4,112 bases of DNA from Escherichia coli (lineage in GTDB: Bacteria > Pseudomonadota > Gammaproteobacteria > Enterobacterales > Enterobacteriaceae), in assembly GCF_036507355.1 (NCBI RefSeq), contig NZ_AP027884.1; one strand, written 5' to 3'. Each line of letters begins with the position of its first letter. Within the stretch, counting starts at the first letter, position 1. Positions 1-4,112 of the stretch are shown piece after piece. A program made the translations under genes and the position numbers. The notes beneath the pieces were generated by a model. The model did no database searches and was not told the DNA's origin. It saw only the letters and a list, made by a program, of their open reading frames with translations.

Positions 1-104
1 TAATGAGAGCAGAGATAGCGCTGATGTCCGGCAGTGCTTTTGCCGTTACGCACCACGCCTTCAGTAGCGTAGCAGGAAGGACATCTGATGGAAATGGAAG
101 CCAC
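1..104 (-). CDS. insA: IS1 InsA, 5' portion (GTG start at 104; frame runs off the window start and resumes at 4112)
   Basis: Reverse-strand translation [34 protein letters not shown] matches the InsA N-terminus (MASVSISCPSCSATDGVV...) including the CxxC zinc-finger cysteines. Confidence 0.85.
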
Positions 105-136
105 GCAAGCACCTTAAAATCACCATTATACACTAA

Positions 137-159
137 ATCAGCAAGTTGGCAGCATTACC
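137..159. repeat. IS1 terminal inverted repeat (IRL)
   Basis: Reverse complement begins GGTAATGCTGCCAACTT, the canonical IS1 terminus. Confidence 0.85.
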
Positions 160-294
160 CGCGAGGTGACCAATCGGGTTCCTCATGGGAATAAAAACTG
201 CTGCAGTTGGCCCAGTGCCACGGAGAATCAGTTAGGCAATGGAAGGGTAATAAATAGAACTGACTGCCCTTATTCACTTGAGGTTTATCGGGAG

Positions 295-317
295 GCCCGC
301 TATTAGCGGGCTTTTCT
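295..317 (+). terminator. Putative rho-independent terminator (GCCCGC-tatta-GCGGGC followed by TTTTCT)
   Basis: 6-bp GC-rich perfect stem, 5-nt loop, T-rich tail on the plus strand; lies between the IS1 end and the 3' end of the convergent Wzz-like gene. Confidence 0.5.
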
Positions 318-369
318 GCATCTGGCGTGTAACGGATGTTGCTAGAATACGGTTATTAATCGTTACAGG

Positions 370-1038
370 CTAATAAAAAGACCTGTTTAACTTATTTTTA
401 TATTCAAGTATAGATCTTTTTATTATATGATACGAGGAGGAAAAGATAACGGCTATAATTAACGTTAGAGCCATAATTAAAGCTGGTTTATACTTTTTAT
501 TCACTATTTCATTATTTATTGAAATGAAGTTTTTTTCTCCGGTGGTGTTTATTTTTGTTAATAATGCAACTTTTGCATATGTTTCAGTGCCATTTATATA
601 GTTGCTGTCCTGGTTGTTAACTATGCTTTTATAAGTTTTATAATCTTGGATGTACCAGTCATCAATAGCTTTATGGATAGCGTTTACTTCAGCGGTAATC
701 AGTGGTTTGTAACGGTCATCACCAGCCCATGACAGGATTATTTTTTTTCCTTTTTCATCTATATTTGATGTTATAGACTTGCTTTTATTGTTTATAATTG
801 ATTGTATGATATTCGCTTTACAATAAAAGTCAGACCCACAGTTAATAATCATACTTGGTGAATTAGCGATCATATTTAATTCGTACTTTATATTTATTTT
901 GTTTTTGTTTATCAGTAAGAAAATAGATGACAAAATCAATGAGAAAACAACAAACAAAATAATACTCACGATTTTTTTCTTAAGAAAGAGAAATAACTCG
1001 ATGAAATCAATATCAGGTGAATTGTTTTCCATTTTCAT
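370..1038 (-). CDS. Short Wzz/Cld-like polysaccharide co-polymerase family protein (222 aa, bitopic membrane protein: N-terminal TM, about 140-aa periplasmic domain, C-terminal TM)
   Basis: A 669-nt ORF in roughly 25% GC DNA, where stop codons are frequent, is very unlikely by chance. The N-terminus MKMENNSPDIDFIELFLFLKKKIVSIILFVV parallels the Wzz motif M..ENN...IDLI(D/E)LL.QLW.GK..II followed by a TM helix. The C-terminus KPALIMALTLIIAVIF plus short basic tail parallels the Wzz C-terminal P-rich/TM segment. Hydrophobic stretches at about residues 23-43 and 186-206. Confidence 0.55.
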   Translation of the reverse strand: MKMENNSPDIDFIELFLFLKKKIVSIILFVVFSLILSSIFLLINKNKINIKYELNMIANSPSMIINCGSDFYCKANIIQSIINNKSKSITSNIDEKGKKIILSWAGDDRYKPLITAEVNAIHKAIDDWYIQDYKTYKSIVNNQDSNYINGTETYAKVALLTKINTTGEKNFISINNEIVNKKYKPALIMALTLIIAVIFSSSYHIIKRSILEYKNKLNRSFY

Positions 1039-1130
1039 ATACCAACAATAGTTATTAAATTATAGCTTAAATAAATAAATAAAATTAAAATAGCCGTGAT
1101 GAATATTTTCGCTGATTTAGTATATTTCAT
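1035..1130 (-). CDS. 31-aa hydrophobic micro-protein (MKYTKSAKIFITAILILFIYLSYNLITIVGI), predicted single TM; stop overlaps the Wzz-like start (ATGA)
   Basis: Hand translation of the minus strand: ATG at complement of 1128..1130; TGA stop shares 2 nt with the ATG of the 370..1038 ORF, the arrangement typical of translational coupling. Below the ORF-track size cutoff. Confidence 0.45.
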   Translation of the reverse strand: MKYTKSAKIFITAILILFIYLSYNLITIVGI

Positions 1131-1282
1131 TTTAAAATCCAATCAAATAAAAACATTTTACCTATTATTTAGGTGTGAGAAAACTCCTAAAATCAATTTT
1201 TTTTTGTTTGTTTTTTGTTCGGTTATGTCTATGGAGAGAGTTGTTATCAGCCTGTATCCTTTCCACATATTTTAAGATCTTC

Positions 1283-1311
1283 TTGAGATCCTTGTGTTAC
1301 AGCCGTAATCT
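1283..1311 (+). promoter_or_regulatory. ColE1-type RNA II (primer) promoter: -35 TTGAGA (1283..1288), 17-bp spacer, -10 TAATCT (1306..1311)
   Basis: Position and sequence correspond to the pMB1/ColE1 RNA II promoter (ttcttgagatcc...gcgtaatct). Confidence 0.75.
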
Positions 1312-1318
1312 CTTGGTC

Positions 1319-1426
1319 TGAAAACGAAAAAACCACCCGGCAAGGTGGTTTTTCGAAGGTTCATTAAACCGGCAAGTTTATGAACCGTGGTAACAGGGTG
1401 TACAAGACCGCTGCCACCAAAATCGT
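1319..1426 (-). ncRNA. RNAI: RNA I antisense copy-number control RNA (about 108 nt)
   Basis: Complementary to the 5' region of RNA II. The 5' end is placed by alignment to the pMB1 RNA I start (ACAGUAUUUGG, here ACGAUUUUGG). The 3' stem-loop ACCACC-loop-GGTGG plus U-tract lies at 1325..1350. Confidence 0.8.
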
Positions 1427-1860
1427 CCTTCTAGTTTAGCCGCAGTCTGGCTCTAACTTCAAGAACTCTGCATCAGTAATCTCTTGTACACCCTCTACCA
1501 ATGGCTACCGCCAATGGCGATTTGTCGTGCCTTTTCGGGTTGGACTCAAGACGATAGTTACCGAAAAGAGCGTGGTAGTCGGACTGAACGGGGGGTTCGT
1601 GCATACAGTCCAGCTTGGAGCGAACTGCCTACCCGGAACTGAGTGTCAGGCGTGGAATGAGACAAACGCGGCCATAACAGCGGAATGACACCGGTAAACC
1701 GAAAGGCAGGAACAGGAGAGCGCACGAGGGAGCCACCAGGGGGAAACGCCTGGTATCTTTATAGTCCTGTCGGGTTTCGCCACCACTGATTTGAGCGTCA
1801 GATTTCGTGATGCTTGTCAGGGGGGCGGAGCCTATGGAAAAACGGCAAGCCCGCATCCTT
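1320..1860 (+). ncRNA. RNAII: RNA II pre-primer of a ColE1-type origin (approximate ends; RNA/DNA switch estimated near 1845..1865)
   Basis: Extended similarity to the pMB1/ColE1 ori, e.g. ggactcaagacgatagttaccg, ctgaacggggggttcgtgca, cagcttggagcgaac, ggaacaggagagcgcacgagggagc, cagggggaaacgcctggtatctttatagtcctgtcgggtttcgccac, caggggggcggagcctatggaaaaacg. Confidence 0.85.
1433..1462 (-). promoter_or_regulatory. RNA I promoter: -35 TTGAAG (complement of 1457..1462), -10 CTAAACT (complement of 1433..1439)
   Basis: Same layout as the pMB1 RNA I promoter (TTGAAG ... 17 bp ... CTACACT). Confidence 0.7.
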
Positions 1861-2062
1861 TTTCCGGCCTTTCTTGACCTCCGCTCCATCTCGTTACCTC
1901 GTCATTCGTGAGCCGGTACCGCTCGCCGCAGCCGAACGACCGAGCGTAGCGAGTCAGTGAGCGAGGAAGCGGAATATCTCTTGTATTGCATCTTCTGCTG
2001 ACGCGCCGGTGCCTCCTTTTTCTCCTGCCACATGAAGCACTTTCATAAAGTGTTACTCCACC

Positions 2063-2130
2063 GTAGCATATTGAGCCCATATACACTCCGCTAGCGCAAC
2101 GTGACTGGTTCAGGGCTGCGCCCCGAAACC
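2063..2130. other. ColE1/pMB1-type bom/oriT-like (nic region) sequence
   Basis: catatacactccgctagcgcaacgtgactggttcagggctgcgccccga parallels the pBR322 bom region ccagtatacactccgctatcgctacgtgactgggtcatggctgcgccccga, which lies between ori and rop in pMB1 derivatives. Confidence 0.6.
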
Positions 2131-2164
2131 CTCTAACAACCTCTCAGCTACTGGATATCACCCC

Positions 2165-2314
2165 ATGCCATCTGAATATGATGAACAACTGGATTCGACT
2201 GATACGCAGCTTCCCGGCGAATATGACCTTTTTGATTTAATGGCGCAGGTTACTGAAGAGAACCTGCACGCCCCGGTGGATTTTGGGCCGCCTGTCGGCC
2301 GTGAAGTGTTATAG
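2165..2314 (+). CDS. Hypothetical small acidic protein, 49 aa (MPSEYDEQLDSTDTQLPGEYDLFDLMAQVTEENLHAPVDFGPPVGREVL)
   Basis: Hand-translated ORF immediately downstream of the bom-like segment; no clear Shine-Dalgarno; no recognised family. Could be a chance ORF. Confidence 0.25.
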   Translation: MPSEYDEQLDSTDTQLPGEYDLFDLMAQVTEENLHAPVDFGPPVGREVL

Positions 2315-2338
2315 CTTTTTCGCTTATCCGCGTACGTG

Positions 2339-2413
2339 GTAATACGCCGGTATTACATCTTATTTCTTTATTTTCATGTAATTACAGGTGGTTGTAATAC
2401 GTTGCGTATTACA
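2339..2413. promoter_or_regulatory. Cluster of three palindromic operator-like sites sharing a GTAATAC/TGTAAT half-site
   Basis: GTAATAC-gccg-GTATTAC (2339..2356); TGTAATTACA (2377..2386); TGTAATACG-ttg-CGTATTACA (2393..2413). All arms are perfect. Confidence 0.5.
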
Positions 2414-2580
2414 TAAATAAACGGGGACTTCAGTTTTTACCTTTTAATTCATGCAATTGCGATGAAAATCGCGGTTGCGTATGGTGTATGACCATTTAAG
2501 GGATAATGTAACCTGACTTTTAAAGAATGAATCTATCTTTGGTAGCGCATGAGATCGATAAAAAGCGTTCCACATCAGGC

Positions 2581-2600
2581 GGTTCATGGATACATGAACC
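2581..2600. promoter_or_regulatory. Perfect palindrome GGTTCATG-gata-CATGAACC
   Basis: 8-bp perfect inverted arms with 4-bp spacer, immediately upstream of the phased direct-repeat array. Confidence 0.45.
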
Positions 2601-2603
2601 GGA

Positions 2604-2684
2604 AAGGACAAAAATAAGACAATTGTAGGACATTTTTTGCGTTTTACTCTTATTTTTGGACTATTATGAGACAAATGTAAGACA
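2604..2684 (+). repeat. Iteron/operator-like array: two sets of three 7-bp direct repeats (consensus T-R-R-GACA) at exact 11-bp spacing, separated by a 30-bp gap
   Basis: AAGGACA 2604, TAAGACA 2615, TAGGACA 2626; TTGGACT 2656, TGAGACA 2667, TAAGACA 2678. Spacing of about one helical turn; the array ends 14 bp before the ATG at 2698. Confidence 0.6.
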
Positions 2685-2697
2685 TTATGGGCGGTAT

Positions 2698-3066
2698 ATG
2701 GCGAATTTTAACCCTGGTCCAAGAACAGCCATTGCAGCTGTCAGGGATTCCAAGAACGATATAGAAACCTGGAAGAAAAATGGTATCCGTAGGGAAGAGA
2801 TTGTGACTGTACTGAATAAACGTTACGGCCTGAATATCTCACTGGTTGCGTTTGATAAGGCTCTTTACAGATTGAGAAAAAGTACAGATGAACCGTCTCT
2901 TGCTGATGTGGATTCTGTGTCTGCTGCAGAAACGAATTTCTCTGAAGCCAGTGGGCCTGAAAATGGTTTTTTTCTGTCCGGGAATGACTTCATGCGAGCA
3001 GAAGAAGAATCTCAAAGAATGGTTGAGTCATTCAGAGATAGCCTTGGCAGGAAGAAAGGATTCTGA
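2698..3066 (+). CDS. Hypothetical protein, 122 aa from ATG 2698 (ORF track extends to a TTG at 2656); basic N-terminal half, acidic C-terminal tail; possible DNA-binding protein
   Basis: Open frame of 120+ codons directly downstream of the phased repeats; N-terminal segment NGIRREEIVTVLNKRYGLNISLVAFDKALYRLRK is HTH-like by eye; no family recognised with confidence. Confidence 0.5.
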   Translation: MANFNPGPRTAIAAVRDSKNDIETWKKNGIRREEIVTVLNKRYGLNISLVAFDKALYRLRKSTDEPSLADVDSVSAAETNFSEASGPENGFFLSGNDFMRAEEESQRMVESFRDSLGRKKGF

Positions 3067-3272
3067 TTTTGAATTCTAAGTAGTGAAATAGTGGATCCTC
3101 TACTCGAAATTGTCGGATACCTGCAATTACCTACCGTGCCTTACGGCTTGGTCAATGCCTCACGGCCACGCAATAAATTGCGTCCCCGTTCACCGTTTTC
3201 GGATAAGAAGAACATCGGAAACAGGACTTACCCCGGCTGAATGGCGTGAATTTCCGCGCTATGCACTTGCGC

Positions 3273-3284
3273 GCATACTCATGC
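3273..3284. promoter_or_regulatory. Candidate ArgR-box-like palindrome (GCAT-actc-ATGC) in the Xer accessory region
   Basis: Palindrome centred about 109 bp upstream of the XerC arm, where cer-type sites carry an ArgR site; sequence only loosely resembles the ARG box consensus. Confidence 0.3.
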
Positions 3285-3386
3285 ATGCCGTAAAAACAGA
3301 GCCTGCGCGTTTCTGGCGGGTTTTCGGGTGGTTTGTTGCCTGTTTTACCGGTTTCCCGTCAGAAACGCCCTCAGCGCCTCTCAGGC

Positions 3387-3414
3387 GGTGCACGCAACGG
3401 ATGTTATGGTAAAT
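3387..3414 (+). other. Xer site-specific recombination site (cer/psi-like multimer resolution site): XerC arm GGTGCACGCAA, 6-bp central CGGATG, XerD arm TTATGGTAAAT
   Basis: XerD arm is identical to the cer XerD arm; XerC arm differs from psi (GGTGCGCGCAA) at one position; 11+6+11 layout. About 200 bp of potential accessory sequence lies upstream. Confidence 0.6.
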
Positions 3415-3432
3415 CCAGCTGATTGGCAGGTA

Positions 3433-3458
3433 CAAAAAAGCCCCGCAGGGCTTTTTTG
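3433..3458. terminator. Bidirectional rho-independent terminator (AAAAAA-GCCC-cgca-GGGC-TTTTTT)
   Basis: Stem flanked by an A-run upstream and a T-run downstream, between the Xer site and the IS1 right end. Confidence 0.6.
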
Positions 3459-3503
3459 CTATGAGTTAGCCATATTTTCGTGCGAATTTTTCATCGGAAT
3501 CGC

Positions 3504-3526
3504 GGTGATGACTCCAACTTACTGAT
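3504..3526. repeat. IS1 terminal inverted repeat (IRR)
   Basis: GGTGATGACTCCAACTTACTGAT, the canonical IS1 terminus. Confidence 0.85.
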
Positions 3527-3914
3527 AGTGTTTTATGTTCAGATAATGCCCGATGACTTTGTCATGCAGCTCCACCGATTTTGAAAACGACAGTGACTTC
3601 CGTCCCAGCCTTGCCAGATGTTGCCTCAGATTCAGGTTATGCCGCTCAATGCGCTGCGTATATCGCTTGCTGATAACGTGCAGTTCTCCCTTCAGGCGTG
3701 ATTCATAAAGCGGCCAGCCATCCGTCATCCATACCACGACCTCAAAGTCCGACAGCAGGCTCAGAAGACGCTCCAGTGTGGCCAGAGTGCGTTCACCGAA
3801 TACGTGCGCCACAACCGTCCTCCGAATCCTGTCATACGCGTAAAACAACCAGCGCTGGCGTGATTTAGCGCCGACGTAACCCCGCTGTTCGTCCATTTCA
3901 GCGCAGACAATCAC
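3519..3914 (-). CDS. insB: IS1 InsB (shown from first in-frame ATG; in IS1 the transposase is the InsAB' fusion made by -1 frameshift at the A6C motif, here complement of about 3959..3967)
   Basis: ORF-track protein [28 protein letters not shown]...HYLNIKHYQ matches IS1 InsB; the TTAAAAAAC slippery motif is present on the minus strand just upstream. Confidence 0.9.
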
Positions 3915-3940
3915 ATCACCGCCCGGTTGTATGCGCTAGG

Positions 3941-4112
3941 TTACCGACTGCGGCCTGAGTTTTTTAAGTGACGTAAAACCGTGTTGAGGCCAACGCCCAT
4001 AATGCGTGCACTGGCGCGACATCCGACGCCATTCATGGCCATATCAATGATTTTCTGGTGCGTACCGGGCTGAGAGGCGGTGTAAGTGAACTGTAGTTGC
4101 CATGTTTTACGG
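3941..4112 (-). CDS. insA: IS1 InsA, 3' portion (stop codon = complement of 3941..3943)
   Basis: The frame continues from the window start; 34 codons + 1 junction codon + 57 codons gives 91 aa plus stop, the InsA length. C-terminal sequence ...[16 protein letters not shown] is followed by TAA. Confidence 0.85.

Follow-up and report, generated by a model that had tools for sequence, protein, structure and literature searches.

A 4,112-bp Escherichia coli record read as a complete circular ColE1-type plasmid, opened within its single, defective IS1

The stretch of E. coli DNA analysed here (4,112 nucleotides, hereafter the window) is very probably the whole of a circular ColE1-type plasmid, written from an arbitrary point within its only IS1. 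The source record is 4112 bp long, and the window is therefore the entire record. Its circularity is deduced from comparison with other assemblies. The plasmid is already known and ordinary, as near-identical plasmids are present in public databases. Its features are listed in Table 1.

Table 1. Coordinates of features in the window, with functions predicted from homology.
Feature	Position	Strand	Basis or remark
IS1 nt 159->1	1..159	-	Coordinates, translation; IS1/IS1595 zinc-binding domain 7.9e-9
Spacer adjoining IRL	160..278	.	Common to IS1-free pSMS35_3, p64EVA-4, pVE-T9_5
222-aa Wzz-like (polysaccharide co-polymerase-like) inner-membrane protein gene, GNVR domain	370..1038	-	Pfam
ColE1-type replication region	1276..1900	+	72% identity to ColE1 598-1531, 944 columns
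RNAI antisense copy-number regulator	1324..1425	-	Rfam RF00106
bom/oriT-like site	2046..2131	-	Homology to ColE1 1436-1521
Conserved 49-aa ORF	2165..2314	+	Similarity confined to the toxin-binding tail at the C terminus of MazE/PemI antitoxins
Operator-like repeats	2339..2698	.	Function inferred only
122-aa StbA-like helix-turn-helix protein	2698..3066	+	NF041290 StbA_2, PF28167
cer-like multimer-resolution site	3321..3417	+	Homology to ColE1 3844-3941
Flank adjoining IRR	3415..3503	.	Hairpin, then TM2-domain gene end
IS1 nt 768->160	3504..4112	-	Coordinates, translation; NCBIfam transpos_IS1 2.6e-38

A sequence-only reading of the window had taken its two ends for parts of one IS1 in the same orientation, and the coordinates bear this out: the parts, of 609 and 159 bp, sum to 768 bp with no gap or overlap. 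As that reading had also proposed, the insA frame runs across the window ends, from a GTG start at the complement of 104 to a TAA stop at 3943..3941 (91 codons). An A6C frameshift motif at 3967..3959 (TTAAAAAAC, IS1 nt 305-313) then leads into the insB' frame, and NCBIfam transpos_IS1 matches both parts. This organization corresponds to that described for the IS1 family, i.e., 768 bp with insA and insB' linked by a -1 frameshift (PMC12903888). The ends of the element read GGTAATGCTGCCAACTT... and GGTGATGACTCCAACTT..., with terminal inverted repeats (IRL 159->125, IRR 3504->3538) that match each other at 22 of 35 positions. A promoter-like site lies at 152->125; consensus promoter and terminator scans of the window found sites no more commonly than in shuffled sequence, and were thus not used as evidence except for this known IS1 promoter position. 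The joined element is colinear with real copies, aligning over 1-768 in one piece to chromosomal IS1 copies (identity up to 99.3%). At least 80% of it is covered by some place in 4,950 of the 5,426 complete E. coli genomes, and the resemblance cannot be put down to chance.

The proposal that the window is a linearised circular plasmid cut inside IS1 is supported by its end-to-start junction (4112 to 1), which is internal and unbroken in other assemblies, being continuous in at least six, and up to eight, independent ones opened elsewhere. Four RefSeq/GenBank plasmids (NZ_CP080073.1, NZ_CP139187.1, NZ_JCAPUO010000003.1, and AP027812.1), three of which are flagged circular and each of which has a different opening point, contain the junction internally and contiguously. 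It is likewise contiguous in AAZSXH010000080.1 (an NCBI contig of 4112 bp opened at window 1205/1206), in a 4252-bp MEGAHIT contig with a 141-bp terminal repeat or overlap equal to its k-mer size, and in a 19.6-kb contig that represents a head-to-tail concatemer of the plasmid unit. The closest record, p713Rt_4 (NZ_CP080073.1, 4096 bp, circular), is 100% identical to the window except for one 16-bp IS1 deletion; the missing nucleotides, 401-416 of the element, lie between GCGCT repeats and are present in the window copy. Other close relatives include pCE35-5 (NZ_CP139187.1, 4112 bp), ES4 plasmid2 (4115 bp), and p2017.12.01CC_5 (AP027812.1, 4035 bp), whose backbones diverge from that of the window in parts, by 2.5-13%. 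All four share the window's gene order, both of its IS1 junctions, and its TAG stop within insB', and all four are opened at positions other than the window's.

Two alternative readings of the record would invoke assembly. First, a 3.3-kb unique segment could lie between two IS1 copies of a larger molecule (a cointegrate, chromosomal or IncF, or else a composite element), with the 4.1-kb circle produced by assembler collapse. We consider this very improbable, even though three contigs from other samples show the plasmid joined via a full IS1 to other DNA. One of these (L021, CATUBT010000057.1, 22 kb) consists of 91 bp of IS1, the plasmid, a full identical IS1, and E. coli ygaC-nrdHIEF-proVWX. 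In the other two (L033 and L034), which have the same layout, the joined DNA is a T6SS locus and an IncFII/tra region; in a related Klebsiella plasmid, an acyltransferase gene lies between two IS1 copies. However, the record measures exactly 4112 bp, and its two IS1 parts complete each other to the base, without overlap. Three complete-genome assemblies also give this circle with its single IS1, at 4096-4115 bp. Outside those plasmids, no complete E. coli genome holds 80% or more of the window, and the exact ygaC junction of L021 is without IS1 in all complete genomes, with an IS1 nearby in a few. Contigs that cross a repeat into unrelated DNA are also a common assembly error, chiefly in metagenomes. 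The three joined contigs are either cointegrates or assembler mis-joins, and integrated or cointegrate forms of the plasmid may therefore exist.

Second, and less probable still, the real plasmid could be IS1-free, or carry extra DNA between two IS1 copies, with the recorded IS1 an assembly artefact derived from chromosomal copies. IS1 is indeed abundant in E. coli, whose genomes have a median of 11 places for it, and both the backbone and the GNVR module have IS1-free relatives. Yet both junctions between unique DNA and IS1 are seen again in eight or more independent assemblies, among them long-read complete genomes and the concatemer, with the same rare IS1 variant (TAG stop) in all of them, and no IS1-free record has the two flanks joined. 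A single-IS1 circle is our preferred reading.

Judged from its reading frames, this IS1 is a defective pseudogene copy, predicted to be unable to make its own transposase. The insB' frame is stopped by a TAG at 3938..3936 (IS1 nt 334-336) where intact copies read TCG, and a zinc-finger cysteine of InsA (TGC) is changed to tyrosine (TAC), the changed base being base 1 of the window. The window copy lacks the intact InsAB' frame of an autonomous element, and PGAP marks the copy in relatives as a pseudogene with an "internal stop".

The surroundings of the element (...CGGAATCGC-IS1-CGCGAGGTG...) suggest a more complex origin than insertion. IS1 usually generates a 9-bp target-site duplication, and a second, canonical IS1 in the concatemer variant (L030) does carry the expected 9 bp (TATCCCTTA). 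At the ends of the window IS1, a search for a target duplication of any length found none, the flanks sharing only CGC. An empty site, i.e., the two flanks joined without IS1, was sought in PLSDB, and the flanks were adjacent in no record; each of them runs on into different DNA in IS1-free plasmids. On the IRL side, the spacer is preceded in pSMS35_3, p64EVA-4, and pVE-T9_5 by upstream DNA that is missing from the window (...GGAGAT, directly followed by CGCGAGG). On the IRR side, a hairpin at 3434-3457 (AAAAAAGCCC-CGCA-GGGCTTTTTT) is followed by the final ~37 nt of a TM2-domain gene, the rest of which is absent. The same junction between this flank and IS1 is found in pYLPD4c, and a Salmonella plasmid without IS1 carries the flank uninterrupted. 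A Klebsiella plasmid (L008) in which BLAST suggested an IS1 at the same site was rejected, as alignment shows its flank to be unrelated.

Given the lack of target-site duplication and flanks from unrelated plasmid contexts, we infer that a rearrangement, rather than a simple insertion, produced the junction at which this IS1 stands. Because its own transposase could not be made and a target duplication is lacking, the element is best read as the probable scar left when IS1 mediated an adjacent deletion or when two IS1 copies recombined. Such an event would have brought together the cer side and the GNVR module, each from a different plasmid context. The IS1-free plasmids pSMS35_3 (NC_010487.1), pVE-T9_5, p64EVA-4, and Salmonella pF18S038-3 carry the window's GNVR module and/or its 1276..3414 backbone, but differ from it in the DNA that runs from the XerD arm (3414) to position 160 or 279; in some of these relatives, rop or what is left of a distant IS1-family element is present.

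The earlier assignment to the ColE1 type is upheld by homology at the origin and by a full-length match to RNAI (101.6 bits versus a gathering score of 47, E 3.1e-19). RNAII reads rightwards, from a promoter that, judged by eye against ColE1/pMB1, we take to be TTGAGA...TAATCT at about 1284-1311; on the same grounds, the origin presumably lies near 1860-1880 (GGAGCCTATGGAAAAACGG...). No Rep-family protein was matched among the window ORFs, and a tblastn search with all ColE1 ORFs found no Rop in the window. This search also covered the Mbe proteins of ColE1 and those for colicin, immunity, and exclusion, and its only matches came from spurious ORFs of the origin region. Rop/Rom is an accessory protein that is optional within the ColE1-type family. 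RNAII would provide the replication primer and antisense RNAI the control, without Rop or a plasmid Rep protein. At the cer-like site, the core GGTGCACGCAA-CGGATG-TTATGGTAAAT (3387..3414) has a 6-bp central region, and homology to every relative stops exactly at its XerD arm (3414); this putative XerCD site should resolve multimers.

The plasmid had also been described as mobilizable, which would hold in cis only, since a bom/oriT-like site is present but neither a relaxase nor any other ColE1 mob protein is. The conserved arm of this site (2080-2131) matches the pBR322 bom at 47 of 52 positions, while the stretch that we take to be nic-proximal has diverged from ColE1 (TGGGCTCA versus CTGGCTTA). 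No ColE1 Mbe homologue was found in the window, whose longest non-IS ORFs are 222, 136, and 100 aa. PLSDB lists no relaxase for p713Rt_4, and MOB-suite types the same plasmid as "mobilizable". Transfer through the bom-like oriT would occur only if a co-resident plasmid supplied a relaxase and another supplied the mating apparatus.

The predicted cargo comprises a short Wzz/YkgH-like membrane protein, an StbA-like DNA-binding protein, and a MazE-tail-like peptide, and none of these three plasmid proteins matched the PADLOC defence models. Members of the Wzz/polysaccharide co-polymerase (PCP) family have two transmembrane helices around a periplasmic domain, along with Wzz and GNVR motifs. The 222-aa protein, a distant paralogue of chromosomal YkgH, matches Pfam GNVR at 4.8e-9 but Wzz only at 0.024, and scores 17.6 bits against NCBIfam WzzB (cut-off 267). 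Its model (pLDDT 85) has KpsE, WzzE, and Wzc as best folds, all weak matches (TM 0.35-0.47). The gene is AT-rich (22-33% GC), and the module at 279..1275 is common to Salmonella and E. coli relatives; a literature search found nothing specific on GNVR/Wzz genes of small ColE1-like plasmids. The StbA-like ORF is open from 2656, with relatives annotated with a 369-bp gene; it matches NF041290 StbA_2 at 2.3e-9, under the curated cut-off, and identical products carry PF28167 StbA-like. Just upstream of it, a 41-nt unit made up of (G/A)GACA motifs occurs twice as a direct repeat (2606-2646 and 2658-2698), and the other operator-like repeats are palindromes, GTAATAC-N4-GTATTAC at 2339-2356 and TGTAATACG-N3-CGTATTACA at 2393-2413. 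The 49-aa ORF, which has in-frame stops upstream, aligns with MazE 53-81/82 (E 0.0069) and with PDB 7d2n (E 0.0021), as well as 1mvf and 1ub4; no Pfam match, AbrB-fold domain, or adjoining toxin gene was found for it.

A joint reading of these elements, which we hold to be doubtful, is that a small multicopy plasmid family delivers a minimal YkgH-like polysaccharide co-polymerase together with a defective IS1 that serves as portable homology. The co-polymerase may then alter O-antigen or capsule chain length, or surface-dependent sensitivity to phages or colicins, while the IS1 may let the plasmid fuse reversibly with an IS1 of the chromosome or of an IncF plasmid and be carried along at conjugation. 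Fusion of this kind, if true, would explain the contigs in which plasmid, IS1, and chromosome or IncF DNA are joined. The main value of the present analysis is one of bookkeeping: all window features are parts of a single small plasmid and call for annotation on a circle, with the split IS1 entered as one pseudogene feature instead of two partial genes. The plasmid also illustrates clearly how an IS1 can mark a junction formed by recombination instead of a simple insertion, and it draws attention to a short, uncharacterised Wzz/YkgH-like cargo gene that small plasmids of E. coli and Salmonella commonly carry.

Compared to known systems, the plasmid shares with ColE1 (NC_001371.1) an RNAI/RNAII origin, a bom-like oriT beside the origin, and a cer-type XerCD site. 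It differs from ColE1 in an origin that is only 72% identical, in a cer core with a central region of 6 bp instead of 8 bp, and in having no rop, colicin, immunity, or mbe genes. It resembles pBR322, a bom+ mob- derivative, in that the putative cis site is present with none of the mob genes. The cargo protein is much shorter than WzzB (222 versus ~325 aa). The IS1 agrees with the reference element in its length and inverted repeats, and in having insA, the A6C motif, and the insB' frame. Its identity is 99.3% to chromosomal copies of this isoform, 88-91% to the canonical IS1 of the concatemer, and about 90% to IS1A.

The source record is 4112 bp long, all of it in the window, and its two ends hold the parts of one IS1 on the minus strand: 3504..4112 (609 bp) and 1..159 (159 bp) share an orientation and sum to exactly 768 bp. 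Both parts match the NCBIfam IS1 transposase model, and InsA matches the IS1/IS1595 zinc-binding domain model. Because the joined element aligns in a single piece, from 1 to 768, to chromosomal IS1 copies (identity up to 99.3%), the artificial join involves no indel or rearrangement. Together with the terminal inverted repeats, the A6C motif and the insB' frame, this confirms the split IS1 described in the sequence-only reading, including an insA that runs across the window ends, with all coordinates correct.

Coordinates of features in the window
Feature	Coordinates	Strand	Characteristics
IS1 terminal inverted repeats	joined 768-bp element	-	22/35 positions matching
insA	complement 104 (GTG) to TAA 3943..3941, across window boundary	-	91 codons
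A6C frameshift motif	3967..3959	-	in IS1
insB' frame	in joined IS1	-	present
222-aa protein gene	370..1038	-	AT-rich, 22-33% GC
RNAI	1324..1425	-	Rfam, 101.6 bits, full length
Conserved 49-aa ORF	2165..2314	+	resembles MazE/PemI antitoxin tail
Palindromes	2339..2413		GTAATAC/GTATTAC, two
(G/A)GACA direct repeats	2606..2698		two of 41 nt, just upstream of and overlapping StbA-like ORF start
StbA-like protein gene	2698..3066		helix-turn-helix protein
cer-like core	3387..3414		GGTGCACGCAA-CGGATG-TTATGGTAAAT, XerC/XerD-type

Comparison with other assemblies strongly supports the further proposal that the window is a linearised circle. It matches the circular RefSeq plasmid p713Rt_4 (NZ_CP080073.1; E. 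coli from human faeces, Shenzhen) at 100% identity, save for 16 bp missing from the p713Rt_4 IS1. The same content and order recur in three further plasmids, pCE35-5 (4112 bp, circular), ES4 plasmid2 (4115 bp) and p2017.12.01CC_5 (4035 bp, circular), whose records all start at different positions, and a 600-bp probe over the end-to-start junction found an internal, contiguous match in all four. Three more independent cases were reached by looking up the cargo protein: NCBI contig AAZSXH010000080.1 (4112 bp, 99.5-99.8% identical), opened at window 1205/1206; a 4252-bp MEGAHIT contig whose 141-bp terminal direct repeat, equal to the k-mer size, is the usual signature of a circle, here of 4111 bp; and a 19.6-kb contig (GCA_901482365.1), a head-to-tail concatemer of the plasmid unit in which 4112 continues into 1 in every repeat. 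Since the plasmid has been deposited repeatedly as a complete circular record, the finding is a known one.

Three contigs from other samples do lead from the plasmid through a complete, identical IS1 into other DNA, as would be expected if the window were part of a larger IS1-flanked molecule: into E. coli ygaC-ygaM-nrdHIEF-proVWX (L021, CATUBT010000057.1, 1..4205), an IncFII repA/tra region (L034) and a T6SS locus (L033). The first 91 bp of L021 and the first 123 bp of L033 come from the right (IRR) end of IS1, so in both the plasmid segment has IS1 sequence on either side. Such contigs represent either genuine cointegrates formed through IS1 or assembly paths that took a wrong exit from the repeat. 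However, no complete genome contains an IS1 at the exact ygaC junction, or at least 80% of the window anywhere except on the three plasmids; the window itself derives from none of the three contigs, and for this record we consider a larger molecule very improbable. The interpretation as a circular ColE1-type plasmid is supported with two corrections: its oriT-like site comes without mob genes, and its IS1, a dead copy, sits where recombination has joined different DNA.

This IS1 is a divergent isoform, 88-91% identical to the canonical IS1 of L030 (CABEEG010000005.1) and ~90% identical to what we take to be the IS1A sequence. In the insB' frame, three codons after the insA stop, it has TAG where intact copies have TCG, and the InsAB' frameshift product would end after ~93 residues. 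In InsA, TAC (Tyr) replaces the codon for the last zinc-finger Cys, the changed base being window position 1; this change alone is also present in an IS1 copy called intact by PGAP, which marks the IS1 copies of relatives as pseudogenes with an internal stop. Nevertheless, the window IS1 need not be immobile, because an IS1 transposase supplied in trans can work on IS1 ends (PMC12903888). In the p713Rt_4 host, the chromosome (NZ_CP080070.1, 3948469-3949220) has an IS1 with both the TAG and the 16-bp deletion (IS1 nt 401-416, between GCGCT repeats), like the plasmid copy compared with it (L004, 713-1464). The same defective variant therefore resides on both replicons, which is consistent with mobility in trans.

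No target duplication was found at the window IS1 (...CGGAATCGC-IS1-CGCGAGGTG...). On the IRR side, 3415..3503 corresponds to the DNA found after cer in other ColE1-like plasmids, and it breaks off in the 3'-terminal part of a TM2-domain gene whose remainder is present in an IS1-free Salmonella plasmid; plasmid pYLPD4c has the identical junction of this flank with IS1, but its IS1 is truncated. On the left (IRL) side, 160..278 runs into upstream DNA (...GGAGAT/CGCGAGG) in the IS1-free relatives pSMS35_3, p64EVA-4 and pVE-T9_5, and this upstream DNA is missing from the window. The two flanks lie side by side in no PLSDB record. With no duplication, and with flanks that each continue elsewhere and are not adjacent in any PLSDB record, the IS1 marks a join between two unrelated contexts. 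A junction of this kind is the expected remnant of an IS1-promoted adjacent deletion or of recombination between two IS1 copies; either an adjacent deletion or, alternatively, IS1-IS1 recombination, e.g. during cointegrate resolution, could have produced the arrangement, and the sequences fit both alike, without telling them apart. The concatemer variant provides a control: its second, canonical IS1 has a clean 9-bp duplication (TATCCCTTA, window 2497..2505). In this variant, L030, units of the same plasmid plus that IS1 follow one another head to tail (period 4888 bp); its Streptococcus pneumoniae label does not seem to fit an E. coli ColE1 plasmid. In three IS1-free relatives (L007, 434..565; L012; L015), the end of a different, highly divergent member of the IS1 family (…TTAGAGGCATCACC), together with part of its transposase gene, lies 88 bp upstream of the breakpoint at window 160, which makes this spot a repeated target of IS elements.

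Only one cargo gene is both sizeable and intact. Its 222-aa product has a GNVR domain, matches the Wzz N terminus weakly and is predicted to form two membrane helices. Fold matches of its model (pLDDT 85) are weak but consistently to polysaccharide co-polymerases (KpsE, WzzE, Wzc), and it is probably a short Wzz/GNVR-type membrane protein. It belongs to a very small family, with only 30 relatives at E <= 0.001 among 1.8 billion representative proteins; the full-length ones are all about 205-236 aa, and two periplasmic Cys are conserved. One relative is chromosomal YkgH, adjoining ykgEFG (26% identity, full length). A literature search on the function of the 222-aa protein found nothing. The (G/A)GACA repeats and palindromes upstream of the StbA-like ORF may be operator or partition-type binding sites. 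For the 49-aa ORF, the sole resemblance is to the C-terminal tail with which MazE/PemI antitoxins bind the toxin (TEENLH..DFG). It lacks a DNA-binding domain, has no neighbouring toxin gene, and could encode an orphan anti-toxin peptide or a remnant.

The backbone (1276..3414) is 88-93% identical in the relatives aligned, and all or most of it is covered by dozens more PLSDB plasmids. Because every aligned relative diverges directly after the XerD arm (3414), the alignments suggest that recombination in this group of plasmids has repeatedly had its boundary at the Xer site, and that recombination there shuffles cargo modules. A related ColE1 backbone from Klebsiella pneumoniae (NZ_CP138799.1, 5290 bp) carries two IS1 around an acyltransferase gene, a composite-transposon-like arrangement.

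Given the strand of RNAI, RNAII reads rightwards from ~1320. Window 1276..2142 is homologous to ColE1 598..1531, i.e. origin plus bom, and 3321..3417 to the ColE1 cer region, although the central region of the cer-like core is 6 bp rather than the 8 bp of ColE1. The bom-like arm (2080..2131) aligns to ColE1 1436-1521 and matches 47/52 positions of what we take to be pBR322 bom; the presumed nick-adjacent stretch differs. ColE1 proteins (Rop, Mbe proteins, colicin, immunity, exclusion) had no match in the window, and the longest ORFs outside IS1 (222, 136 and 100 aa) leave no room for a relaxase. Judged by these homologies and the lack of ColE1 proteins, the plasmid is ColE1-type, as first proposed, and at most mobilizable in trans. 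An oriT-like site is present and mob genes are absent; MOB-suite labels the PLSDB entry of p713Rt_4 'mobilizable' without a relaxase call. The plasmid would be mobilizable, at most in trans, in the same way as bom+ mob- vectors.
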